Source of the DNA: a virus
Taxonomy: Duplodnaviria; Heunggongvirae; Uroviricota; Caudoviricetes
Length of the DNA stretch: 47,804 bases
Strand: one strand, 5' to 3'
Virus record (IMG/VR): IMGVR_UViG_2541047728_000005
How positions within the stretch are numbered: the stretch's first letter is position 1; each line of letters opens with the position of its first letter. Shown piece after piece: positions 2,997 through 35,342 of this stretch. The translations under genes were made by a program, and so were the position numbers. The notes under the pieces are model-generated. The model was not told where the DNA came from. It worked only from the letters and a program-made list of their open reading frames with translations, and searched no databases.

Positions 2997-3998
2997 TTAA
3001 TACCCATTAATTACTCTTCGGACATCAATCGAGGTGGTATAACCACTAGTCCCAATTGAATGCACAGCTTTCGATATAAGATATTTTCCAGAAAATGAAC
3101 CGAATCCCTCCAGATTTATAGTTACACCAGCTACCAATCTGGTGTCTCCAACCAATACTAAAGATCCGGTATTTTGATATCTATTTTTAAGCCGCAAAGC
3201 AGCCTTTGCCTTACGTTTTGCTTCATCTAAATTAGCTACCAGTTTTCTTATCTTAAGATTCGACCCTTCTTCTACGGATGGATCTACCCAAGTATACGAA
3301 AGCGACTTTCTTTTTTTAGGTACGCGATATTTGCACGTGCAACTTTTATACAAATCTGTAGATTGTGTGCTAAAGCTATATCTGATTATCTCATCAATAC
3401 CTAACGTAAGCGTAGCGATAGGATCTTTTTGCTCAAACATCTCTTGAGCAAATATTATTAATTGGCTATCAGTGACCTTTAACGACAACCCTTCATCCTG
3501 GCAAAGTCGATGGAGAAATTTTAAATCGCTTTCCTCCATTTGATCTTCACGCGCATAATATGGATTACTATCACCATCAATAAGAAACAACAGTTCAAGG
3601 TTAGCTAATTTAGCTATAGAAGTTGCTATATCTTTAAGAGTTGTTTTTTCCCATGCATTACTTTTTAAATCACGTCTAATGCCTGATGAAACAGGAACAG
3701 AAACAGCAGTTACCTCAACCACAGAAGGTGGTCCAGAGCAAGTTATGCCATCTACCTGGAATTTCCCGCACTCAAGGACGATTTGATTTATAGGCTTAAA
3801 GCTCAAATCAATAAAATCACCCTTTTTAGGTGTCCAGTCTCCAGACCATTTCCCATCATCATTTTTTAATATAATAGAAATATCATCGACCTGACCATCT
3901 TCATTATCTGTATAAGACATTGACAAAACATCAGGTGACATATGAGCGGTAATATTTACATTCTGATATATAACATCAAAAAGCGTTTTACGTAACAC
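2997..3998 (-). CDS. Tail protein D-like (P2 gpD / Mu gpP late control D family)
   Basis: 333-aa ORF downstream of tape measure and X-like gene, as in Mu/P2 tail operons. Confidence 0.55.
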   Translation of the reverse strand: MLRKTLFDVIYQNVNITAHMSPDVLSMSYTDNEDGQVDDISIILKNDDGKWSGDWTPKKGDFIDLSFKPINQIVLECGKFQVDGITCSGPPSVVEVTAVSVPVSSGIRRDLKSNAWEKTTLKDIATSIAKLANLELLFLIDGDSNPYYAREDQMEESDLKFLHRLCQDEGLSLKVTDSQLIIFAQEMFEQKDPIATLTLGIDEIIRYSFSTQSTDLYKSCTCKYRVPKKRKSLSYTWVDPSVEEGSNLKIRKLVANLDEAKRKAKAALRLKNRYQNTGSLVLVGDTRLVAGVTINLEGFGSFSGKYLISKAVHSIGTSGYTTSIDVRRVINGY

Positions 3999-4206
3999 TA
4001 TTGCGTCTCCACGGAGGAAAATTGTTTACTGATATTGGCATAACCGGAGCATCAGGAACTTTAAGAATAATTCCCGCAGAAAAAAGCACCGTAAAGCGGT
4101 GCTCAGTATTAGCATCAATAAGAAGATAAGACAGGTACTCATTACCATACAACTTTAAAGCGATACTATCCCATGAGTCCCCTTGAACCGTTCTATAATC
4201 ATCCAA
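3988..4206 (-). CDS. Small tail protein X-like (LysM-like)
   Basis: 72-aa ORF directly after tape measure gene; MDDYRTVQGDSWDSIALKLYG resembles LysM-type tail protein X. Confidence 0.45.
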   Translation of the reverse strand: MDDYRTVQGDSWDSIALKLYGNEYLSYLLIDANTEHRFTVLFSAGIILKVPDAPVMPISVNNFPPWRRNSVT

Positions 4207-6991
4207 AACTTAATCTCCGTTGTTGGAACATATGAGCACTCAATTTCTTCTCAAAATCAGAATATCCCGCATCTAATGCTCTTTTAGCTGCCGCCTCAGT
4301 TTCCTTTGGTGAACCAGCCGGAAGATTGATTACAGGTGAATAGGTTATTCCACCAGTCACAGCGTTAACGTTCTGGCGAGGTCCAGAAGTCCCAGCGGCA
4401 GATATCCCGTGAGGTGATAAATTTGATTGCCCGAACTTGCTTGCTATTGCATTCTGTAAGCTGTTATTCCTGCTAACACCTGATGCCAGAGTAGTCATTA
4501 TTGCACCACCTGACTTTGTTAGCTGTGAGAATGGACCTTTTTTCGCGTCAGAGAACGGTAAATACTCACGTACAGAAGAAAAAACGCCTTTCACTTCATT
4601 AATTAAAGCATTTGCTTTTGATTTTATCCCAGTGATTAACGTCTCAATTATTTTTGCGCCTGACTCACTCCAGTTTATTCCAGATAAATAAGTCGTTACA
4701 GATTGGAATGCTCTTATAAAGAGTCCAACTGGTGAAAAACGCATAAAAACAGATACCAGTGTATCTATGATTTTCTTTCCTGTTTCGCTCCAGTTAATGC
4801 CAGAAAGGTAATTTGTTGTAATTTTAAATGCTTTAATTAAGAACGGAAGCGGAGACATCCATTTAAAAGCACTAATTAATGTACTGTAAATTCTTACTCC
4901 TGCCGAACTCCAGTTTATGTTGGAAAGATAATCCCATGCTTTACCAAACATAGATATAATCCATCCATTGAGGTCAAAGTTTAAGATAAAGTTTTTTATA
5001 GCCTCAAATGATTTAACTGTATATTCCTTAACAGAAGGCCAAACTCTGACAGCATAATCTCTGATCTTATCCCAATTCTGATAGAGCAATATTCCTGCGG
5101 CAACCAGCGCAGATATAGCCATCTGAATCCACCCGAAGGGTGTTAGCTTTGTCGCTACAGATAAAGCCAGCATAGCTACCCTACACGCTATAACCACACT
5201 TTTCATGGTTAGAAACGCACCTGCCGCCATCACTATCTGAGACACAAAATTGGGGTTGTTAGCTACAAATTCACTAATTTTTGTAATCAGCGGAACCAAA
5301 ACACTAAGCGCGGCATTCAAAGCAGGTTGCAAGGCCTGACCAAAACTTAATGATGCATTGCTAGCCTGAATACGTAATTGTTTCAATCGCTCCGCATTAT
5401 CTTTCGTTATGTTGGCAAAATCGCGGTCAATAACAGCACTTCCAGCTCCAAGAGATGTTGCTTTGATTCTCTGGTATTCCTTCCAGTTTTGAATCATCGG
5501 ACGAACAAAGTTCTGAACCTGCATATCGCCAAATAGTTCACCAAGTAACTTCTGATCTCCGTTCTTAGTCATTTTCATGACAGAATGCATTGCAGCTTCG
5601 AATGGATTCTTCCCTTTTTTCTGCGCTGTTGTAACAATTTTATATAAATCTACACCGAAATTTTTCTTTGCTTTTTTTAGTGTTTCAGGGGAAAGTATTT
5701 TTGCCAAAAAGTTGTTCATATTATTAGCAGCCTCATCCGAAGTTGCAGCCCCCTTGCGAGCTATCTGCAAAGCTGCACCCATCGTCGCGGCTGCTTCTTT
5801 ACCTCCCATTTTTAATGCCTGGAACTGAGCACCAAGCACAGGAAGATTTTTGGCCATATCTTTAAATTCAAAGTTCCCCTCTTTCCCTGCCTGAACCAGA
5901 ATCCCCATTGCAGACTTCATTTGAGATGGATCAATCTTCAATGAGTCACTTAATGTAAATGATGCTTTCGAGACATCGAGGATATCAGAGCCAGTAGCTG
6001 TAGCTGTTCGCCCAATAGTTAGTAGATTCGCCTGAGCCTCTTTATAATCCTGCCCAGCAGCGACGAGAAAACCCTGAGCGGCCTGAATATCAGATGCAAA
6101 CTGGTTGGTAGCCGTTCCGGTAACAAGCATCGCCTGCCCCATCGCCTGAACTTCTTCCGGCTTCATATCTGCCGTAAGACCAATCATTTTGTTTTCACGA
6201 TTGAAATTTGCTGCATTGTTAGCAGCAGCAAATGCACCAGCCGCTACAGCACCAGTTTGTAATCCTGACCTTACAAGTTGACTCTTTGCCTCACCAAGAT
6301 GCTCTCGCTTCAATTCACGCTGCCTTTCCAACGCGCGGTTTAACTCCTCCTGAGCACGTTTTACTGCAAGAACATTTTTCCGTGCTTCAGCCAACGCATT
6401 TTTATAGCTGTTAATTTTATCAATACGTTGTTTTTCTAATGCCCGGTTAAGTTCCTCCTGCTGTTTTTTCACTTGCTGAACATTTGCTCTGGCTAAAGCC
6501 AAAGCCGTTCTGTAGCGGTTAACCTGCTCAACGCTACGGGCCTGAGCCTCACGATTACGATCAATGCTGGCTTTAAGCTCTTTCTCTCTTGAGGCCAAAG
6601 CTCTGGCAGATGTATCAGCTCCCTGATAGGCAGACTTTAAAGCGGCCAGTTCTTCACGCTGAGAACGTAGTGATGCTCGTAAATTTGATGAATGTGTTTT
6701 TGCCTTCTCAAAGTCACGAAGCATCGCTCTGGTTGGATTGGCCGTGTTTTTTATTTGCTTCTGTAACTCTTCAACGCGAGCGGCAGCTTTATGATATTCG
6801 AGGGCAGTCTGTCCAACCTTTACTTTTACAGATTGTAGCTTTTGAATTTCCCCATGTTCTTTCGTTAATCCAGCAAGCTCTGCATTTAATTTAGCAACAG
6901 CCTGATTAGCTGTAGTAAAACTTTTGGGGAGAGAGGCGGCAACTTTGCCGCCAATTTCAAAAGCCAGCTTAAAGTTCTTATTGCTGGCCAT
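4199..6991 (-). CDS. Tail tape measure protein
   Basis: 930-aa ORF; N-terminal coiled-coil with repeated AxLxRxxEE heptads, central hydrophobic segments, three tandem ~37-aa repeats ending in YLSGINWSE; follows chaperone gene. Confidence 0.85.
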   Translation of the reverse strand: MASNKNFKLAFEIGGKVAASLPKSFTTANQAVAKLNAELAGLTKEHGEIQKLQSVKVKVGQTALEYHKAAARVEELQKQIKNTANPTRAMLRDFEKAKTHSSNLRASLRSQREELAALKSAYQGADTSARALASREKELKASIDRNREAQARSVEQVNRYRTALALARANVQQVKKQQEELNRALEKQRIDKINSYKNALAEARKNVLAVKRAQEELNRALERQRELKREHLGEAKSQLVRSGLQTGAVAAGAFAAANNAANFNRENKMIGLTADMKPEEVQAMGQAMLVTGTATNQFASDIQAAQGFLVAAGQDYKEAQANLLTIGRTATATGSDILDVSKASFTLSDSLKIDPSQMKSAMGILVQAGKEGNFEFKDMAKNLPVLGAQFQALKMGGKEAAATMGAALQIARKGAATSDEAANNMNNFLAKILSPETLKKAKKNFGVDLYKIVTTAQKKGKNPFEAAMHSVMKMTKNGDQKLLGELFGDMQVQNFVRPMIQNWKEYQRIKATSLGAGSAVIDRDFANITKDNAERLKQLRIQASNASLSFGQALQPALNAALSVLVPLITKISEFVANNPNFVSQIVMAAGAFLTMKSVVIACRVAMLALSVATKLTPFGWIQMAISALVAAGILLYQNWDKIRDYAVRVWPSVKEYTVKSFEAIKNFILNFDLNGWIISMFGKAWDYLSNINWSSAGVRIYSTLISAFKWMSPLPFLIKAFKITTNYLSGINWSETGKKIIDTLVSVFMRFSPVGLFIRAFQSVTTYLSGINWSESGAKIIETLITGIKSKANALINEVKGVFSSVREYLPFSDAKKGPFSQLTKSGGAIMTTLASGVSRNNSLQNAIASKFGQSNLSPHGISAAGTSGPRQNVNAVTGGITYSPVINLPAGSPKETEAAAKRALDAGYSDFEKKLSAHMFQQRRLSFG

Positions 6992-15283: not shown

Positions 15284-17140
15284 CTATATGGTTACGCCTT
15301 TACTTATAACTCTACGGCGTCTTCTACGTATACCTGACGAGTTCTGCACATACACATTACCTCGCATTTCCTGTTCGGCAAGCCAGTTAAAATTAGGGTT
15401 CAGAATTTCCATCGCGGCAGTTGCATAGTTACGGCAATCAAGAGGCTCGTTACGCTCGTAGACTTTCACCCACTTTTCTTTTGTCTGCCCATTTTTATAT
15501 TCAAATATTTTTTTCTCTGATAATAATCCTTTAAAGTATTCGGTATCATATCCTCTGTCAGAATCTAATGGGAAATGCATATAACCAGGACCAGGATCAT
15601 GTAGTTTAATTCTTGCCATGATGGTCCCTTTACCATCATCAACCCCCAAATTAAACAACATAGCACCCACACGGTTATTATTACTTGGCTTTCCTATAAA
15701 TGGTAAACCTACCCCACCACGCCCCCTGATAGAGTATATTCGCCTTGATTCTCTCGGCTTAGTAAAGCGATATACCTCTGTCGTAAAATGCCCACCAGAG
15801 TCAATACAAACGGAAGAAATCTGTAATTTTCGACCGTCACGGAATGACCAGCTACGGAGTAAGTATTCATCAAGTTGTTTCCAGACAACATCTTGTGCGG
15901 GATCACCTGGGAATATTTTATATTCTATCCCCCATGACTCCTTACCTTTTCCCCAACCGACCAATTCACAAACTAAATACGTGTCCTGTACGTCAACACC
16001 AGCACTTAACAATAAAACATCATCTGGTAAAAACTCTTCAAACCTTATTCTGCGTTGCAACAAGTATTCAGGATCGATATCGTCTTTAGCATCCTCTTTC
16101 CATGGCTCACCCAGCTTAAGGTTAATAAACTCCATTAATCCATTTTTATCGCGGTTTCTGGTTGCTTCCGTAAATTCTTCAACCAGCTCTGACAATGCAA
16201 CCCACGGGGAGTAAAGACTGTTAATATGAAAACCAACAATACCTTTAACTCCAGTATGTTCAGCTATCCATACCCCCTTCGCCAACCAATCAACGTCTGG
16301 TTTACCAGATCCGCGCATAATCCCGCCGCACTCACAGCACTCATATCTGGCCGTTTCCGGTAACGCCTCACCTGAATCGCTCTTATCCCATCTGACTTGC
16401 GACCATTTCATCACCTGCATGGTGCCACAACATGGGCAAGGAACATGGTAGTAACGCTGATCGGAGAGCTTAAACCACTTGTGGATTTTGCTTGTTTCCT
16501 CCAAAACAGGAGTAGAAACAAAAACTTTCTTACGATTATGAAAGTTGGTAGTACGCTGAATACCTAGTTTTAGTGGGTCGCCCTCCTGCGTCACACCGTA
16601 ACGATCAATCTCATCAGCTAACAGTATTCGAATTGGCCTGGATGCAAGACCTGCTGGGGAATTAGCACCAACAAGTGCTATATATCCACCAGCGTAATGC
16701 TTCATACGTATAGTCGTGCTGGACTTTTTGGCTGCACCGCGCCCCTCTTTCCCTTCATGCAGCTTGTGTTTCAAACCAGGGGAATATTTGAACGTCGGAT
16801 CAATACGCTCTTTTGAAAAAGCCTCAGCCGCCTCTACCGTTGGATAAATCATCAACTGAGGAGATGGCTCCTGATCTGCAAAGTAACCCATAACATTTAG
16901 CTGTAATTCGGATTTACCAATTTGCGAGCTACATTGCATCACTACTGTTTCTGTATCAGCGTCACCAATAACATCCATTGGTTCACGCAAATATGGCACT
17001 CGGCTTGTACGCCACGGCCCTGGCTCTGGAGACGTTCCCGGCGCTACATGACGATACTTATCAGCCCATTCGGAAACAGTTAGCCGTGATTTAGGGCGAA
17101 GCGCACGGAAAAAAGCGGTGCTCCATACTGTTTCGCCCAT
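15284..17140 (-). CDS. Terminase large subunit (lambda gpA-like)
   Basis: 618-aa ORF; position upstream of gpW/portal; size typical of GpA-type terminase. Confidence 0.8.
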   Translation of the reverse strand: MGETVWSTAFFRALRPKSRLTVSEWADKYRHVAPGTSPEPGPWRTSRVPYLREPMDVIGDADTETVVMQCSSQIGKSELQLNVMGYFADQEPSPQLMIYPTVEAAEAFSKERIDPTFKYSPGLKHKLHEGKEGRGAAKKSSTTIRMKHYAGGYIALVGANSPAGLASRPIRILLADEIDRYGVTQEGDPLKLGIQRTTNFHNRKKVFVSTPVLEETSKIHKWFKLSDQRYYHVPCPCCGTMQVMKWSQVRWDKSDSGEALPETARYECCECGGIMRGSGKPDVDWLAKGVWIAEHTGVKGIVGFHINSLYSPWVALSELVEEFTEATRNRDKNGLMEFINLKLGEPWKEDAKDDIDPEYLLQRRIRFEEFLPDDVLLLSAGVDVQDTYLVCELVGWGKGKESWGIEYKIFPGDPAQDVVWKQLDEYLLRSWSFRDGRKLQISSVCIDSGGHFTTEVYRFTKPRESRRIYSIRGRGGVGLPFIGKPSNNNRVGAMLFNLGVDDGKGTIMARIKLHDPGPGYMHFPLDSDRGYDTEYFKGLLSEKKIFEYKNGQTKEKWVKVYERNEPLDCRNYATAAMEILNPNFNWLAEQEMRGNVYVQNSSGIRRRRRRVISKGVTI

Positions 17141-17145
17141 GAGGT

Positions 17146-17706
17146 TTATTCTTCCTGCTTAATAAATCGGGATTCCTGGAGCGCCTGAAGCGCAAAATTA
17201 ATCTCGTCTTCAATAATGCGCTCGATCTCCCTGGCTGTTTTGCCTTCACAACGGGGAGCTGCTCTTGGAGCAATACTAAATAAGCGGCTACGCAATTCAT
17301 TAGCTGCCAGAAATGCATCATCCCTGACCGCATCTTTAGCGATGAGAGAGCCTTCCTTTTCTTCAAATTCAAGGCGTTTCAGCTTTGCCTGATAAATTTT
17401 TTCTGCGGTCTTAGCCTTGTTGAATTGCACCGCAACACCGGAAGTACCACCAGCTAATCCGGCATCATCAGCGGGTAACTCTGGTTGTTCCGAAGATATC
17501 CCATGCCCTCTTTTTCCATTTTCAGCAGATACCTCACGACCAACCTGTCGGCTCGCTTCATAAGCCGCACTGGCTTTATCAAAATCCAGCTTGCCGCTTT
17601 TCAGCACTGGAATGCGACCGGAACGACAGAGCTTCGTAACCATTGCCGGAGAAATACCTTTCCGGCGGGCAAACTCTGACTTACTGACGATGGCCATTAC
17701 TTGCAA
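17146..17706 (-). CDS. Terminase small subunit (HTH DNA-binding)
   Basis: 186-aa ORF immediately upstream of TerL; N-terminal HTH-like ...ARRKGISPAMVTKLCRSGRIP... Confidence 0.6.
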   Translation of the reverse strand: MQVMAIVSKSEFARRKGISPAMVTKLCRSGRIPVLKSGKLDFDKASAAYEASRQVGREVSAENGKRGHGISSEQPELPADDAGLAGGTSGVAVQFNKAKTAEKIYQAKLKRLEFEEKEGSLIAKDAVRDDAFLAANELRSRLFSIAPRAAPRCEGKTAREIERIIEDEINFALQALQESRFIKQEE

Positions 17707-18287
17707 CCATTAGCAAGATACTGAACAAATCCCTCATGCGTTTCATGCGCGTCGTGGTACTGACGATAAACATCCAGCAACAATGCAATTTCCATATCCG
17801 TCGCGGGAATACGTTCTTTATCAATAGCCAGGTACTTAATTTGAACAACAGGGGAAGAATTATCGTCTTCTTCCTGCGGCTGTTCATCGCTTAACATTTC
17901 GTCAAGCTCTGCATCATTAAACCCAAGCAGATCAATATCAAAATCATCATCCATTAACTCTTTGACTTCTTCGGCCAGAAGCTGCATATCCCAGCCAGCA
18001 TTTAAGGCCAGCTTGTTATCTGCAATCCTGTAAGCCTTCTTCTGTTTTTCAGAAAGGTTACTCAACCGAATCGCCGGAACTTTATCCATTTCCAGAATTT
18101 CGGCTGCTGCAAGCCGCCCATGCCCCGCAATCAGTTCATTCTTTTCATCGATCAGCACAGGATTAGTGAAACCGAACTCACGGATACTGTTCACCAACTG
18201 TTCAACTTGCTCATCTGAATGAGTCCGTGAATTTTTGGCATATCTGAGCAACTTACCGACTGGTAAATATTCGATTTTTAGAGCCAT
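17697..18287 (-). CDS. ParB-like nuclease (ParB N-terminal domain) protein
   Basis: 196 aa; motif LIDEKNELIAGHGRLAAA typical of ParB/Srx fold; paralog of 20953..21576. Confidence 0.75.
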   Translation of the reverse strand: MALKIEYLPVGKLLRYAKNSRTHSDEQVEQLVNSIREFGFTNPVLIDEKNELIAGHGRLAAAEILEMDKVPAIRLSNLSEKQKKAYRIADNKLALNAGWDMQLLAEEVKELMDDDFDIDLLGFNDAELDEMLSDEQPQEEDDNSSPVVQIKYLAIDKERIPATDMEIALLLDVYRQYHDAHETHEGFVQYLANGCK

Positions 18288-18843
18288 TTTTTAACCGCCA
18301 TAACACAACAGGTTAAAGAAAACTGTTTAACTTATTGATACTAAAAGAGAAAAATGACGATCTTTTTACTCATGAAAAATCACACAAACCAGCATAATTA
18401 TCTGATTTTATTAAGTTTTTATAAGTAAAAAGGATCTTGCGATGGTGTTTTGGTTAAAAGATTGGATGTATTTGCATGATTTATAACGATTTTTATCAGA
18501 ACAACATCACATTGGTTAAAGATCTGCGCGTATCTTGATGATCTAAAAGAAAATTTTCCACTTTCTTTTTACCAGCACAAATACAGAAAAAATCACGTTT
18601 TCCCGATATTTTTCAATGAGATGAGTAAATTTCTTTTACCGCAACTTTTAACCTAACTTTTTTCACGTTTAGCTAGCCGAATATCGGGGTTCGAATGACC
18701 CGCATCCAACGCTTTTGTCCAGAAGGACCCAATTCTGCCGGACGATGAAACGATGCTCGTGCTCCCCCACAGACAGCCAGCGAGCGACGCTACAGAACAC
18801 AGTGAATACACTCTGCATAACAACACCATCAACCACACGATGA

Positions 18844-19563
18844 TTAACGAGAGAAGGTCTTGGAAAGAATGTCATCAATAGCCTTTGTGACTTCATCAGC
18901 AAACGCATCCTCACCAGCACGCAGCGCCACGCCATGCCAATCAAGACGCTGCGAATAGTTAGGTTGCTGGATAAACGTAAGGATCAACGTAGGACGCCGC
19001 CCAACGCGCTGCCAGACGCCTGGTTGAAGCGGGTTACTTGTACCAGGTCGAACAACAAAAAACTCCGTAGGCTTGCCCTGACGGCGATTTTGATGCGCAT
19101 CTCGCTGAACTCTTAGGCCAGATAAGACCTGCTGTAATTGCCCCCGCGAAATATTCCCGTATTTGTCCAGCTTTGCGCCGGGACCAGGAGCAATCTGCCA
19201 GCCGTTAGGCAAATATCCACCAGCCCTTAGCGCCCCTTCTGAGCGTTTGTACTGTCGTTGGCCACCTTCGATTTGCGGAGTCAACGTTACAGGGGCTGGC
19301 GTTCCTCCCCATTCACGAGCATACACAATGGCTGTAGGATCACTCTTCTTTGCGGCCAAAACGTAAGTAGAGTTCTGAATCCACGGCGTGGGCCTGTCAA
19401 ATACCCGATTAATTTCATTCTTAATCGCAGCCTGAGAAGCCTTTGCCGTTCTGGTTGCCGCAAGCGCCATTGCGAACGGCAATTCGCGTTCTTCAAGGCG
19501 CTGGAGTTGTCGTTGAATATCCTGAGAAGAAAAATCCATCTTTATCTCAATTCTGTCAGCCAC
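18844..19563 (-). CDS. Hypothetical protein (Gln/Arg-rich, unrecognised)
   Basis: 239-aa ORF between two ParB-like genes. Confidence 0.45.
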   Translation of the reverse strand: MADRIEIKMDFSSQDIQRQLQRLEERELPFAMALAATRTAKASQAAIKNEINRVFDRPTPWIQNSTYVLAAKKSDPTAIVYAREWGGTPAPVTLTPQIEGGQRQYKRSEGALRAGGYLPNGWQIAPGPGAKLDKYGNISRGQLQQVLSGLRVQRDAHQNRRQGKPTEFFVVRPGTSNPLQPGVWQRVGRRPTLILTFIQQPNYSQRLDWHGVALRAGEDAFADEVTKAIDDILSKTFSR

Positions 19564-19579
19564 CAGCGCCTCCTACACA

Positions 19580-20959
19580 CTACTTAATCAACGGCCGGAA
19601 AGCCGCCAGCACATCATCAGATCGTCCGATTGTTGAACCACCAGGCAACGGCAACTCAAACTCAAAACGAACAGCTTTCTCCAGACTCGCCCAACTAAGG
19701 GAATCATCGTTAATGACGTGCAAATACCAGCTCTTACAGTTGAATATTGACCGCTTAATCCTGAAACCATGTACACGACACAACTGCTTCACTTCCTCAT
19801 CAGAGTGAAACTTCTGGTAAAACCAGTGCCCCTTCCGGTACAACGCGGTAAAACCGTCATGATCAATAAAATAAAGCCGGCTTTTGGAACTCGCCGCTTG
19901 TGTTTGCTTCAGGACTGTTTCCAGTTCTCCACGGCTACGGCCAGAAAAGAATATTGACCCACCAGCTTTACACAGGCCTTTCAGAACCGTCAGAACGGAC
20001 CATTCAGCCTCGACACTATCGACCGAGTTCAAAACGCTATCGCAAATCACGTAGTCGTAACGCCCTCGCGTTTTTAAGTCGTCCACCAGCGTATCAATCA
20101 TCCGGTTTGTTGCGGCCCTATCCAGAGTGTTTCCAGCGCCCTTACGGCGGAAAAGCTCGAGATCATGCAGGTTATATCCCTTTGCCCTGAGCATTCGCGC
20201 GTAGTCTCCCTGCCCCGAACCAAAATCAATTCCTCTTGGCGTCTTGGCAATGATCGGGAGGATCAACGACTCATACAGATTTGATTTCAGGCTGCCACCA
20301 TTACGCAACCGCATAAGCTGCGCATACGTCTGGATGTATGTTGTTTTCTCCAGATGAGAATACTCAAATACACCATAAGTTTTATTCAGATAACTTTGGT
20401 ATTTTTCCTTCTCAACATCAGGGATCACAAACACCGTTAGCGGTGTGCGCGTCATTTTCGCTGCTAATGCATACTGAGCACAGTGAATAACCTCACCAGA
20501 CTGAGTAGCAACACAACCACCCCACGGACCATACTTGATAACCAGTTCCGCTATGTTCTTTCGAACATATGCCATTTTCGCGCGCATATTGCCTGAGATC
20601 TGGCTTGCCGATACCTGAACAAAACCATGCTTATCTTCCAGACCGGACACCCTGCAACGCTCATCTCCGCTATCAAAATCCGTTCCGTTATGCAGTTGGT
20701 TAAACCGTACTTCGTCGTATACCGTCGTTTCACAGGGCAACACATACACCGCAGCACGCGTTATTCCCAACTTACGTAGCGCCTTCGTCCTTTGGTGTCC
20801 CGCCACCAGCAAATCGCCGCGCACTATCAATGGCTTCACAAGCCCCAGCTCCCTGACGCTTTCCGCCAGCCTCGCAAGATCATCCTCACCGATAAAACGC
20901 GGGTTATATTCCGCGCCGCGTAGGTGCGTTATGTCGTAATTGAGGTGAAGCATCAGCAC
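19580..20959 (-). CDS. ParB-N domain fused to class I SAM-dependent methyltransferase
   Basis: 459 aa; N-terminal LIVRGDLLVAGHQRTKALRKLG (ParB-N) and central IDFGSGQGDYARMLR (SAM-binding motif I); no DPPY/NPPY-type motif seen. Confidence 0.7.
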   Translation of the reverse strand: MLMLHLNYDITHLRGAEYNPRFIGEDDLARLAESVRELGLVKPLIVRGDLLVAGHQRTKALRKLGITRAAVYVLPCETTVYDEVRFNQLHNGTDFDSGDERCRVSGLEDKHGFVQVSASQISGNMRAKMAYVRKNIAELVIKYGPWGGCVATQSGEVIHCAQYALAAKMTRTPLTVFVIPDVEKEKYQSYLNKTYGVFEYSHLEKTTYIQTYAQLMRLRNGGSLKSNLYESLILPIIAKTPRGIDFGSGQGDYARMLRAKGYNLHDLELFRRKGAGNTLDRAATNRMIDTLVDDLKTRGRYDYVICDSVLNSVDSVEAEWSVLTVLKGLCKAGGSIFFSGRSRGELETVLKQTQAASSKSRLYFIDHDGFTALYRKGHWFYQKFHSDEEVKQLCRVHGFRIKRSIFNCKSWYLHVINDDSLSWASLEKAVRFEFELPLPGGSTIGRSDDVLAAFRPLIK

Positions 20960-21576
20960 ACCTCCCCAGCCAGCAATGCGGATACAAATCCGATATAGCT
21001 GCCATTATCATCAACATAACGAGACACCGCGCAGTCAAAACGATCCGCTTCCTCATCCGTTGCCGGGATTTTATGACCTCCAAATGACAGGTACTGAACT
21101 TTTACGCCTGATTTGGCCTCATCCTTCTCAAATGGGATATCCATACCCTCTGTGTCATCGTAGACTGCCGCACTCAATAAGTTATCCAGTTCGCGCTGAG
21201 TAAAACCAATTGAGTCCAGAGCAAAATCATCGGCCGCAAGATCTGCAAGCTCCGCGCTTAACAACTCTTCATCCCAACCAGCATTCAGCGGAATACGGTT
21301 GTCGGCCAGACGATATGCCTTCTTCTGATTCTCCGTTAGCCCAGCCAGAACAATGCAGGGAACATCATCCATCCCCAACTGAGTGGCCGCAGCAATTCGA
21401 CCATGACCAGCAATTACAACGTTGTTCTCGTCTATCAGGATCGGATTAGTCCATCCGTACTCCTGTATGCTGGCAACAATCTGATCTACCTGCTCCACGG
21501 AGTGTGTGCGAGCGTTCTTTTCATAACCAATCAACACAGAAAGTGGTAAAGAAACCACATTAAGATGTTTTGTCAT
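20953..21576 (-). CDS. ParB-like nuclease (ParB N-terminal domain) protein
   Basis: 207 aa; motif ILIDENNVVIAGHGRIAAA; paralog of 17697..18287. Confidence 0.75.
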   Translation of the reverse strand: MTKHLNVVSLPLSVLIGYEKNARTHSVEQVDQIVASIQEYGWTNPILIDENNVVIAGHGRIAAATQLGMDDVPCIVLAGLTENQKKAYRLADNRIPLNAGWDEELLSAELADLAADDFALDSIGFTQRELDNLLSAAVYDDTEGMDIPFEKDEAKSGVKVQYLSFGGHKIPATDEEADRFDCAVSRYVDDNGSYIGFVSALLAGEVC

Positions 21577-21810
21577 GCCGTTTATCCGCTAAAATCCCCT
21601 CGCTTGTGCAAGCAAGTGGGCCTCGGTTTGTATCCACGGCACCCTGTGGGTATGAATGACTGTCGTCAGGTCGCAACTGACGGCGGTCGCCCACCTTCCA
21701 GTAATAAAAAAGCCACCAGCATTAACTCCACAGCGAGCAGGAGTTAATGAGGCAGCTTTGGTTTGCGCATTATCGCAGCCCCTGATTAGCACAAGAGCTG
21801 CTGTAATGCG

Positions 21811-22232: not shown

Positions 22233-22262
22233 AAAATAAAAAGCCCCGCGACACCGCGAGGC
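22233..22262 (-). terminator. Rho-independent terminator (minus strand)
   Basis: Minus-strand hairpin CCTCGCGG-tgt-CGCGGGG followed by CTTTTTATTTT. Confidence 0.6.
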
Positions 22263-22419
22263 TGTAAGAGTTACTTTCGATATAAATCAAGGCGCATTTG
22301 CTCCCGCTTAAGCCGAAAAGCCCTCTGCGCCACTAAGATGCGCCACAGGACACCAGCGATAACCACCAGCGAGATACAAAAACACACGGCCACAACCATC
22401 AGAAAAATGCCAACACCAT

Positions 22420-22909: not shown

Positions 22910-23180
22910 CCCATGTTCTCCTTTGTCTGGATGTAAAAAAGCCCCGGCAATTGCCGAGGCTCGTTGTTCGTTATCGTTACGGTTTAATGCTCGCGTCGTC
23001 CGGCGACAACTTCGGATTTGTATTTCAGGTCGCCCAGCAAGAATTGCAGTTTAAGCATCTTTGCCGCCGTGTAGTTTCCTGATTCCACAACCTCTTTCAT
23101 GAGGTCATAAACGGCCGCAACATCATCAGCCAGGAACTATTTGCGTTGCTGCTCAGTCGCACGTTTGAAGGAAATACGCA

Positions 23181-23562: not shown

Positions 23563-24144
23563 CTATGCCACTTGCCAGAGAGCATCATGCAACTGGATAC
23601 CTCCATTGCACTGGTTGCCCCAGCCATGCCAACCATCAGGTAAATCACCGCGAGCAAACAGCTCAATACGAGGAACATCACCTAACAGCCTTACCAGCTT
23701 GTCACGAACCACATCAGGCTTCCGAGAATGCTCCAGACGAGGCGATGTAAACGACTGAATGATCCCCGCATCAAGGCGGGTCGGCAATTTGCCTTTTACC
23801 GCAAACAAGCAATCTTCACTGTTTGCACGAGTCATATGCCCCATCCCCAGCTTATCTGGTTGTCGGCTACCACATTTGTTCCATGTGAAGCCCTTCATGG
23901 TCATAAGCCTGAATCCCCATGCTTTCACCACCAGCAACGCTTCTTCTGGCTGAGTCGGAACCCACCACATGGCCAACAAACACGATTCAGGATTAGCAAG
24001 CTGCCAGACAGGAATACGAGCAATATCCTCAGCTTTCATCGTTGAATACTTAAAACCAGCTCCACGATTCCCATCCTTACACTTATCTTTGTATTCCCAG
24101 GGGGGATCTGCATAAATCAGATTAAACAATGCAATTGCCTCCAT
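23563..24144 (-). CDS. DNA N6-adenine methyltransferase, MT-A70 family
   Basis: 193 aa with N-terminal catalytic motif IYADPPWEY. Confidence 0.8.
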   Translation of the reverse strand: MEAIALFNLIYADPPWEYKDKCKDGNRGAGFKYSTMKAEDIARIPVWQLANPESCLLAMWWVPTQPEEALLVVKAWGFRLMTMKGFTWNKCGSRQPDKLGMGHMTRANSEDCLFAVKGKLPTRLDAGIIQSFTSPRLEHSRKPDVVRDKLVRLLGDVPRIELFARGDLPDGWHGWGNQCNGGIQLHDALWQVA

Positions 24145-24452: not shown

Positions 24453-24528
24453 TGGTGGCCCCTACCGGATTTGAACCGATGACCGTGCGATTATGAGTCG
24501 CCTGCTCTAACCACTGAGCTAAGGGGCC
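24453..24528 (-). tRNA. tRNA with CAT anticodon, tRNA-Ile2 (lysidine)-like; could alternatively be Met
   Basis: Minus-strand GGCCCCTTAGCTCAGTGGTTAGAGCAGGCGACTCATAATCGC...GGTTCAAATCCGGTAGGGGCCACCA; cloverleaf with 7-bp acceptor stem, encoded CCA; 5' 42 nt match my recollection of E. coli ileX. Confidence 0.85.
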
Positions 24529-34367: not shown

Positions 34368-35021
34368 ATGACTATCTCTGTAGGTATTTTCAACGGAAAA
34401 GGCGGCGTAACCAAATCAACAATTGCCCGTGCTTTAGCAGTTGCTTATGCAAAGGCCGGCTGGAATGTATGCCTGATCGATATGGATGTGCTTAACGGAA
34501 CGGTAACGCGTTGGGTACAACGCAGAATGGCCAACAATATCGAACCTGCAATCGCGGCGCAGCCGTGCGGCACGCCATCACAAGTCCAGAAAATCATCGA
34601 ATCAGAAGTATACGACCTGGTTATCGTCGATGGCGGTGCCTACGCATCTGAATCAGTACCGAAGCTCTCTGAATTTCTGGATATGGTTATTTTGCCAACC
34701 AGATTCTCTACCGATGACCTAGAAACCACCGTTAACACAGCTCACGGCATCGTTAAAAAGGGTGTGCCAATCAAGAAAATTTGCATGGTGTTCTCAGGCG
34801 CGGCTGAAAACGAAGCCGACTACATTGAAGCCCAAGAGTACCTAGCTAATACGCCATACTTTGTTGTCGATAAGTACATTCCCCACAAGCCAGCTCTGAG
34901 CAAAGCTCAGGATAAGGGCTTAAGCCTCATTGAATGCTCATACGTTGCGCCACGCAAAAAGGCAGACGACGTTATTCAGGGGATTATCAACCAGCTTGAG
35001 GCTCTGACTACTGCCGCGTAA
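34368..35021 (+). CDS. parA: ParA-family partition ATPase (small, type Ib-like)
   Basis: Deviant Walker A GKGGVTKST; ~217 aa from GGAG RBS-supported ATG at 34368. Confidence 0.85.
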   Translation: MTISVGIFNGKGGVTKSTIARALAVAYAKAGWNVCLIDMDVLNGTVTRWVQRRMANNIEPAIAAQPCGTPSQVQKIIESEVYDLVIVDGGAYASESVPKLSEFLDMVILPTRFSTDDLETTVNTAHGIVKKGVPIKKICMVFSGAAENEADYIEAQEYLANTPYFVVDKYIPHKPALSKAQDKGLSLIECSYVAPRKKADDVIQGIINQLEALTTAA

Positions 35022-35056
35022 TATATAATTATAGTTTTATAGATTTATATAAGAGG
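35021..35056. promoter_or_regulatory. TATA-rich palindromic repeat array between parA and RHH gene
   Basis: atatataattatagttttatagatttatataagagg. Confidence 0.45.
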
Positions 35057-35064
35057 GGATACAC

Positions 35065-35313
35065 ATGGCCGGACCATCAAAACCACCAAAGAAGAACAGC
35101 AAAGGCGTACCGCCATCGATCGAACAACCGCAGGTTTTCGACCCGACTGAAACGCCAACCAGAACCAAATCAGGTGGGGCACAAATGGCGTTTAACGTCG
35201 ACCCTGAATTTAAACGCGAGTACAAAACGTTCGCCAGCTCAATGGATATGTCATTGAAAGAAGTGCTGACAAAATCTTTTGAGTTACTCAAGGCTCAATA
35301 CAACCAGAAGTAA
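35065..35313 (+). CDS. Ribbon-helix-helix centromere-binding protein (ParG-like)
   Basis: 82 aa; flexible basic N-tail then AFNVDPEFKREYKTFASSMDMSLKEVLTKSFELL RHH-like fold; AGAGGGG RBS. Confidence 0.55.
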   Translation: MAGPSKPPKKNSKGVPPSIEQPQVFDPTETPTRTKSGGAQMAFNVDPEFKREYKTFASSMDMSLKEVLTKSFELLKAQYNQK

Positions 35314-35342
35314 GAGAAGGTGACGGCCTCCAGCGCCAACTG

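Follow-up and report, generated by a model that had tools for sequence, protein, structure and literature searches.

Candidate DNA-modification role for a conserved pair of ParB-like genes, one fused to a methyltransferase, beside the terminase genes of an Escherichia coli phage-plasmid

Why should a phage carry three proteins with a ParB N-terminal (ParB-N) domain, one of them fused to an S-adenosylmethionine (SAM) methyltransferase, just upstream of its terminase genes? The question is raised by positions 17697-21576 of the window analysed here, the whole 47,804-nucleotide stretch of the IMG/VR record IMGVR_UViG_2541047728_000005, which is a complete circular phage-plasmid of Escherichia coli of 47.8 kb. 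A first-pass annotation, made from the sequence alone, had treated four open reading frames (ORFs) of this region as one functional cluster with a possible role in DNA modification. The minus strand does carry all four ORFs, but the apparent cluster consists of separate units. Only a stand-alone ParB-like protein (named ParB-A) and the methyltransferase fusion (named the fusion) form a conserved pair; a third gene (named p239) stands apart, a likely cos site follows, and a second ParB-like protein (named ParB-B) goes with the terminase genes terS and terL. We lean, with caution, towards the reading that ParB-A and the fusion constitute a two-component, ParB-assisted, ATP-binding module for DNA modification (methylation), expressed late and of the kind found in ParB-terminase loci. 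A DNA-modification role is the part of the earlier proposal that fared best, on the strength of gene context, and the grouping of all four genes is the part that failed.

The pair and the domains of the fusion, as predicted, are laid out as follows.
20953-21576, minus strand: ParB-A, a stand-alone ParB/Srx protein of 207 residues
19580-20959, minus strand: the fusion (ParB/Srx + methyltransferase), 459 residues when read from a GTG codon
20672-20953, minus strand: domain 1 of the fusion, predicted ParB/Srx nucleotide-binding domain (Pfam ParB_N, Spo0J profile match, invariant columns)
20264-20671, minus strand: domain 2 of the fusion, predicted degenerate ParB/Srx fold (residues ~97-232)
19580-20263, minus strand: domain 3 of the fusion, predicted class I SAM methyltransferase of the Methyltransf_23 type, with a C-terminal helical extension at its end

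The fusion has 716 homologues, and an alignment of 42 sequences gave a mean column identity of 56%, which shows that the ORFs of the fusion region are conserved genes and not chance ones. The whole protein falls in PHROG 5475 (E 6e-265), where its function is listed as unknown. Pfam searches recovered ParB_N (PF02195) in all three proteins in which the domain had been proposed, with 33.7 bits for ParB-B, over the 26.3-bit cut-off, and just under it for the fusion (24.3 bits) and ParB-A (23.9 bits). PHROG 620 (E 4e-74 and 5e-75) and a profile match to Spo0J (E 1.7e-8) lend support to the latter two. The fusion is further matched by Methyltransf_23 (PF13489) with 31.9 bits against a cut-off of 27 bits. 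Because the AlphaFold2 model is confident (predicted local distance difference test, pLDDT, 93.3; predicted TM-score, pTM, 0.89), we read the fusion as three modelled domains, namely a ParB/Srx domain, a degenerate second ParB/Srx fold that lacks the arginine of GxxR, and a methyltransferase with a Rossmann-like fold. The internal ParB/Srx repeat was undetected by sequence comparison alone, and the BFVD viral structure library gave no full-length match to the fusion but single-domain matches with query-length TM-scores of at most 0.33.

The conservation pattern differs among the three domains. In the 42-sequence alignment, YNPR, GHQRTKA (Box II) and E83/N87 are invariant in domain 1, and the GxxR motif, which reads GHQR in the fusion, is invariant over the 42 homologues and missing from the second fold. 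In domain 2 the arginine of GxxR is replaced (H159-C-A-Q162-Y163), yet this domain is the most conserved portion of the fusion, and a dense invariant block extends over residues 83-230. Five SAM-binding residues of domain 3 (D245, G247, G249, E268, and D307) are also invariant; motif I is IDFGSGQG at residues 244-251 (IDFGSGQGDY), E268 is the acidic residue, and the motif IV region reads DSVLNSVD. Judged from these residues, the predicted active sites of the fusion, comprising the SAM-binding motifs and the ParB Box I-III residues, are intact.

The architecture has been recognised before. Besides its place in PHROG 5475, the combination of ParB-CTPase and Methyltransf_23 is listed as a phage-enriched fusion by Kaljevic et al. 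2025 (PMC12704722); these proteins have the same architecture as the fusion of the window and very probably belong to the same family. An 'Mtase23' fusion with the Box II sequence GHQRTKA and the Box I loop GFILP is placed among the ATP binders in that study (PMC12704722, SI Fig. S6). GHQRTKA is invariant in the family of the window's fusion and GFILP is present in a branch of gut phages, and by analogy a member of this family very probably binds ATP via its ParB fold. The survey covers architecture and nucleotide binding; its account leaves out the second ParB/Srx fold, the partner gene, the link to the terminase, and any substrate, and no substrate of a Methyltransf_23 fusion is named in the literature searched. 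What was already known is the locus layout and the catalogued architecture, and what is new is the obligate partner, the second ParB/Srx fold, the sharing of one genomic slot with Mom and TAGT enzymes, and the catalytic domain of a non-DNA type.

The obligate partner was identified from the gene neighbourhoods of the family. The loci, 77 of them on viral contigs and the rest drawn from metagenomes and genomes, include several near-identical ones, so not all are independent. Of the 75 loci having upstream sequence, 73 carry a full-length gene of the ParB-A family, found with the family profile, immediately before the fusion, mostly with an overlap of a few bases between the two genes. Identity of these fusions to that of the window ranges over 33-100%, and the loci, which span phages of Proteobacteria and Bacteroidota, include Bacteroides phage BS-TP3 and prophages of Serratia and Klebsiella; a distant homologue of the fusion with 27% identity was found in a Brochothrix phage (Firmicutes). 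The company of p239 and ParB-B is confined to pairs in close relatives of the window. In the window itself, the stop codon of ParB-A overlaps an ATG of the fusion at 20953 (TGATG), an overlap that the first-pass annotation had overlooked. This ATG, giving 457 residues as in the RefSeq annotation and in protein P0001, is likely the true start of the fusion, and through the overlap the two genes are translationally coupled. In the gut-phage branch (L072-L080, ~3800-5983), the match of the partner to the ParB-A profile is limited to the helical and C-terminal part; the fusion there is preceded by an additional ORF of 244 residues and a Methyltransf_25 gene and is followed by an SNF2 helicase.

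The linkage of the pair to packaging genes was also found outside the window. By direct similarity to GpA or Terminase_6 seeds, 33 of 71 loci have a large terminase no more than 5 kb downstream, and a scan of the largest downstream ORF in 20 further loci revealed terminase domains (TerL_ATPase/nuclease, Terminase_6, or Terminase_3) in 11 of them and portal domains in two. In total, at least 44 of the 71 loci have a large terminase within this distance, from four families (GpA, TerL_ATPase, Terminase_6, and Terminase_3). Terminase adjacency is a conserved trait of the family and not a coincidence, which bears out the earlier view that the position upstream of the terminase is meaningful. The persistence of this position over four terminase families suggests a shared timing or substrate rather than contact with one particular terminase.

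A layout of this kind has a precedent. ParB-terminase (ParB-Tls) loci of phages and prophages were predicted to modify phage DNA during packaging by Iyer, Zhang, Burroughs and Aravind 2013, as summarised in PMC4738411. As far as that summary describes them, the likeness lies in the layout, which is found in the window and in the related loci counted above: a ParB-N gene, a modification-type enzyme and a large terminase share one neighbourhood. The enzymes named in the summary are adenine or cytosine methyltransferases of DNA type, TET/JBP dioxygenases and glycosyltransferases. The enzyme of the window, in contrast, is a generic class I methyltransferase of the Methyltransf_23 type that carries its own tandem ParB/Srx domains.

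The ParB-A family, with more than 6,700 matches, connects the pair to enzymes of other classes. ParB-A contains a nucleotide-binding domain (GHGR, residues 57-60), a helical segment, an acidic linker, and a conserved C-terminal domain of ~50 residues. Both ParB-A and ParB-B fall in PHROG 620 (E 4e-74 for ParB-A; the other match 5e-75) and carry GHGR as the GxxR of Box II; they are 48% identical over their full length, in agreement with the paralogy proposed earlier. Their shared domain matches the N-termini of ParB/DNA-methyltransferase fusions in PHROG 498 (E 1e-50), of the ParB/MT-A70 fusions in PHROG 21315, and of the PADLOC model MTase_II. The fusions of a ParB-N domain to a DNA adenine or cytosine methyltransferase (PHROG 498; the Bacillus cereus ParB-methylase Bce_0392, cited in PMC5512222) share the ParB/Srx subfamily of ParB-A and ParB-B. 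Their enzymes are of the N6_N4 type with a DPPY-like motif, whereas in the window the closest ParB domain, that of ParB-A, is a separate protein and the fused methyltransferase belongs to another class. MTase_II and PHROG 498 match the fusion of the window in its ParB region only. Membership in a defence system was considered and rejected, as the PADLOC matches, to a type II methyltransferase model, are limited to ParB regions.

Residues 1 to ~149 of ParB-A, covering the nucleotide-binding and helical parts, are 56-63% identical to stand-alone ParB proteins of enterobacterial prophages. The gene order there is lysis genes, ParB_N, an enzyme, a small ORF, and Terminase_2, which is the same slot. 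In Serratia and Klebsiella prophages the slot after the ParB gene is filled by the fusion; in Yersinia enterocolitica prophages it is filled by an overlapping gene of the Mom family; and in a Citrobacter prophage, a metagenomic contig (L100), and an Erwinia prophage a TET-associated glycosyltransferase (TAGT) gene follows and overlaps the ParB gene. The Mom and TAGT loci (L098 and L099, 4001-5184; L097, 5001-6636; L100, 2684-4403; L104, 3374-5549) all lie just before Terminase_2, and no TET/JBP gene is in view at them. Both the Mom and the TAGT families are named for DNA-base modification. It is mainly this sharing of the slot, together with the ParB domain that is elsewhere fused to DNA methyltransferases, that leads us to consider DNA as the target of the fusion.

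The C-terminal region of ParB-A invites comparison with another helper protein. Its ~50 residues are conserved together with the nucleotide-binding domain across 49 distinct partners of the fusion family, and most ParB partners of other enzymes have C-terminal regions unrelated to it; tentatively, this domain may be a partner-specific adaptor. An RHH-like (ribbon-helix-helix) fold, suggested by its strand-helix-helix pattern, was set aside for lack of Pfam support. ParB176, which has nucleotide-binding and C-terminal domains and no helix-turn-helix (HTH), is needed by the neighbouring thymine dioxygenase 5mYOX176 on double-stranded DNA (O'Toole et al. 2026, PMC13229309). Compared by described layout, ParB-A shares with ParB176 the nucleotide-binding domain, the linker, the C-terminal domain, the lack of an HTH, and the position beside an enzyme. 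The enzymes differ, since a SAM methyltransferase with two ParB/Srx folds of its own stands here and an iron/2-oxoglutarate (Fe/2OG) dioxygenase there. The Erwinia prophage has a separate Methyltransf_23 gene of 204 residues directly upstream of its ParB gene; a split fusion made of this gene and a Methyltransf_23 gene of 301 residues, likewise upstream of the ParB gene, was rejected, as the two are not homologous to the fusion. In E. coli chromosomes, a TrkH-family gene and tail-fibre genes flank a ParB_N protein of 153 residues (L094-L096, 5001-5462) that shares 59% identity with the ParB-A domain and looks like what a defective prophage has kept of such a module.

Several findings weigh against DNA as the substrate, and the link of the fusion to DNA is one of association. 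A regular-expression scan of the fusion found no [DNS]PP[YFWH], PCQ, or ENV motif, in agreement with the first-pass annotation, which had noted motif I and the missing DPPY-type and C5-type motifs. Nor was the fusion matched by Pfam profiles of DNA amino-methyltransferases (PF01555, PF02384, PF05063) or C5-methyltransferases. No target-recognition domain is evident in the fusion, and no companion hypermodification genes were found in the 47.8-kb window. The site just before the terminase is a frequent landing spot for unrelated accessory genes. Furthermore, the Erwinia ParB, whose gene precedes TAGT, can be aligned, if weakly, with ParB-A nearly as far as the C-terminus, which weakens the idea of a partner-specific C-terminal domain. 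The nearest structures of the methyltransferase domain are small-molecule and tRNA methyltransferases with no DNA enzyme among them, and its best structural neighbours include Trm9, METTL6, CmoM-like enzymes, UbiG, and toxin methyltransferases.

These structural neighbours, the generic Methyltransf_23-type domain, and the missing DNA-methyltransferase motifs all fit the main rival explanation, in which the fusion would methylate RNA (tRNA or rRNA), a protein, or a small molecule for host takeover or anti-defence, with the ParB domains as ATP-dependent regulators or a kinase-like partner instead of DNA handlers. A phage 'DNA methyltransferase' with a partner subunit that is reported to prefer 16S rRNA (preprint 10.1101/2023.09.20.558713) adds a caution of the same kind; that enzyme, M.ECPA8_3172P/PNB-2 of a Stx phage, was rejected as a relative, as the preprint has no mention of ParB and the genes lie elsewhere in that phage, and it serves as a caution on substrates only. 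We consider a non-DNA substrate unlikely, as the ParB subfamily of the obligate partner is otherwise fused or coupled to N6_N4 methyltransferases, MT-A70, Mom, and TAGT, and the fixed pre-terminase position over four terminase families suits a late function directed at DNA. The same absence of DNA-type motifs could also be read within the DNA-modification module, with the fusion as a DNA methyltransferase of a fold subclass not known on DNA that leaves a mark other than m6A, m4C or m5C, needs ATP and ParB-A, and is timed to packaging. A ring nitrogen, an exocyclic oxygen, or the backbone could, for example, be the methyl site. This more specific proposal is doubtful, and we put it forward tentatively.

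Beyond the pair, the region divides into the following features.
18844-19563, minus strand: p239 (PHROG 1924)
18288-18843, no strand: ORF-free gap of 555 bp between p239 and ParB-B
18689-18700, minus strand: candidate 12-nt cosN, GGTCATTCGAAC, at the ends of two Yersinia phage records
17697-18287, minus strand: ParB-B, 196 residues, paralogue of ParB-A
17146-17697, minus strand: TerS, the small terminase (PHROG 57, E 7e-42)
15284-17140, minus strand: TerL, the large terminase of lambda GpA type (Pfam GpA_ATPase and GpA_nuclease, E 1e-76 to 1e-84)

The protein p239 matches PHROG 1924, 'minor tail protein', with an E-value of 3e-97. It has no Pfam match itself, and 8 of 40 homologues weakly match Minor_tail_Z (PF06763, lambda gpZ; best E 1.3e-4); no PDB match was obtained by sequence or profile. 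From these similarities, p239 is probably a separate late gene for a weakly gpZ-like virion (minor tail) protein, outside the conserved module. Homologues lie between Rz and TerS in Pseudomonas phages F10 (L089, 3875-4618) and LESphi2 (L090, 4875-5618). In F10-like siphoviruses of Pseudomonas they are the last gene before TerS or the genome end, which is odd for a 'minor tail protein', and a different role is possible. In one predicted protein of 371 residues (P0138), the C-terminal portion of p239 runs into a GpA_ATPase domain, probably as the product of a deletion or of an assembly join spanning the cos region.

The first-pass annotation had also passed over the 555-bp gap that divides the cluster. 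The records of Yersinia phages vB_YpM_39 and vB_YpM_44 begin and end at 18689-18700; one starts with GGTCATTCGAAC and the other finishes with it, and the end carrying these 12 bases is the sole difference between them. This pattern of record ends makes GGTCATTCGAAC a candidate 12-nt cohesive end. The gap is AT-rich at ~18300-18660, with ~400 AT-rich bases separating the candidate cosN from ParB-B, and this stretch is a candidate cosB-type region. An RNA or regulatory element in the gap was considered and rejected: no Rfam match was found, promoter- and terminator-like sites were not above their frequency in shuffled sequence, and only short repeats were seen. The candidate cos site likely parts ParB-B from the other genes. 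On virion DNA, the right end would then carry ParB-A, the fusion, and p239, and the left end ParB-B, TerS, and TerL.

ParB-B seems to be a member of the terS/terL operon. It is coupled to terS, whose start its stop codon overlaps (TAATG, likewise overlooked at first). In Vibrio phage R19R a ParB-B-like domain (62% identity, different C-terminus) is encoded by gene 1 at the left end, followed by a TerS that is 42% identical and then by TerL, an order from which ParB-B seems to travel with the packaging operon. This recurrence, the place of ParB-B as the first gene past the candidate cosN, and the adjacency of the module to the terminase in most loci would agree with another explanation, in which the ParB-like proteins are packaging accessories (nickases, cos-binding or DNA-loading factors, compare HK97-like HNH proteins) and the methyltransferase marks or regulates the packaging substrate. 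ParB domains fused to methyltransferases are also reported to nick DNA, according to the summary in PMC5512222. For the set as a whole we judge this role improbable; it is most plausible for ParB-B. Adjacency over four unrelated terminase families speaks against a specific protein-protein partnership, GpA-type terminases have their own nuclease, many relatives of these packaging modules are without a ParB gene, and the slot is alternatively filled by Mom or TAGT, for which no packaging role is known.

Could the three ParB-N proteins instead maintain the element as partition proteins? The element is a plasmid: its 17100-21700 stretch is 100% identical to plasmid pMB9698_3 (NZ_CP103471.1) and, by this stretch, the element is present in 74 of 5,426 complete E. 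coli genomes, nearly always as plasmids of 47-50 kb. The depositors of the phage records vB_EcoM-613R2 and vB_EcoM-473R2 gave these genes the annotation 'chromosome (plasmid) partitioning protein'. Canonical ParB of ParABS systems, Noc, and KorB have in common with the window proteins the N-terminal ParB/Srx fold and the GxxR motif. The window proteins, in contrast, have no recognisable ParB_C-type dimerisation domain and no adjacent parA, and the nucleotide preference reported in the family of the fusion is ATP, not CTP (PMC12704722). No HTH was found in ParB-A, ParB-B, or the fusion; TIGR00180 (partition ParB) scored 16.4-40.1 bits against its cut-off of 58.45 bits, with the N-terminal ~75 residues alone aligning. 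The ParA-binding motif [LFI]G[KR]G[LFI] is absent in all three, the sole parA of the plasmid lies ~13 kb from them (~34.4 kb) beside its own small RHH-like partner, and the module also occurs in integrated prophages and a lytic-type Bacteroides phage. The partition explanation is close to refuted.

The 17100-21700 stretch is also 99% identical to three Yersinia phages and one partial E. coli phage record, and the plasmid is annotated with RepA, ParA, toxin-antitoxin genes, a P2-like contractile tail, and a lambda-type packaging and head module. ParA (Walker A GKGGVTKST) and, after it, a small strand-helix-helix protein occupy ~34370-35320 on the plus strand, the coordinates being approximate as mapped from the RefSeq record. 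Together they look like a type Ib partition locus that belongs to the plasmid itself and is distinct from the ParB-N genes.

If ParB-A and the fusion do form a DNA-modification module, the following scheme may be proposed, in which we infer DNA as the substrate, the atom methylated, the interaction between ParB-A and the fusion, and the protective role. The module would be transcribed among the late genes, in the order of lysis genes, module, cos, and terminase genes. After replication, and before or during packaging, the fusion would methylate phage DNA using SAM. Its first ParB/Srx domain would bind ATP, and the second, degenerate fold may pack on the first as an internal pseudo-dimer or provide a substrate-binding surface. 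ParB-A could act as an activator or as a DNA clamp that lets the fusion reach double-stranded DNA, on the model of ParB176 and its thymine dioxygenase. The methyl mark would shield the packaged DNA, and perhaps the resident plasmid too, from host restriction or other defences. ParB-B may be a paralogue recruited to the terS/terL operon, possibly as a second helper or a packaging accessory.

Modification of DNA by this module would add a new enzyme class to phage DNA-modification chemistry and a second, independent case of a ParB-like helper required by a DNA-modifying enzyme. Should the mark be of the unusual kind considered above, phage DNA modification would gain a new class, spread over hundreds of Proteobacteria, Bacteroidota, and Firmicutes phages. 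Any DNA mark left by the module could bear on restriction evasion, on host range in phage therapy, and on the reading of methylomes in E. coli strains of the ST131 type. The slot after the ParB-like gene, occupied by the fusion, Mom, or TAGT in similar prophages, offers a natural comparison set for the role of the ParB helper. Even if the module performs ordinary DNA methylation, the view of the region changes: beside the conserved pair stand a virion gene with no relation to it, a candidate cos site, and a ParB paralogue coupled to the terminase genes.

Other features were observed upstream of the cluster. Two strong terminator-like hairpins lie at 22242-22263 and 22939-22962 on the minus strand, each with 9-10 pairs that include 7 G-C pairs and with a run of T after the stem; late transcription might require antitermination past them to reach the cluster. 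A single tRNA with the anticodon CAT (24453-24528, minus strand) is assigned to Met by ARAGORN and the Yersinia phage record and to Ile by RefSeq, and may be a lysidine-dependent Ile tRNA. A stand-alone methyltransferase of the MT-A70 family with a DPPW motif (23563-24144, minus strand) is a second, canonical DNA adenine methyltransferase of the element. By analogy with the ParB-N/MT-A70 fusions of PHROG 21315, one free ParB paralogue might serve this enzyme.

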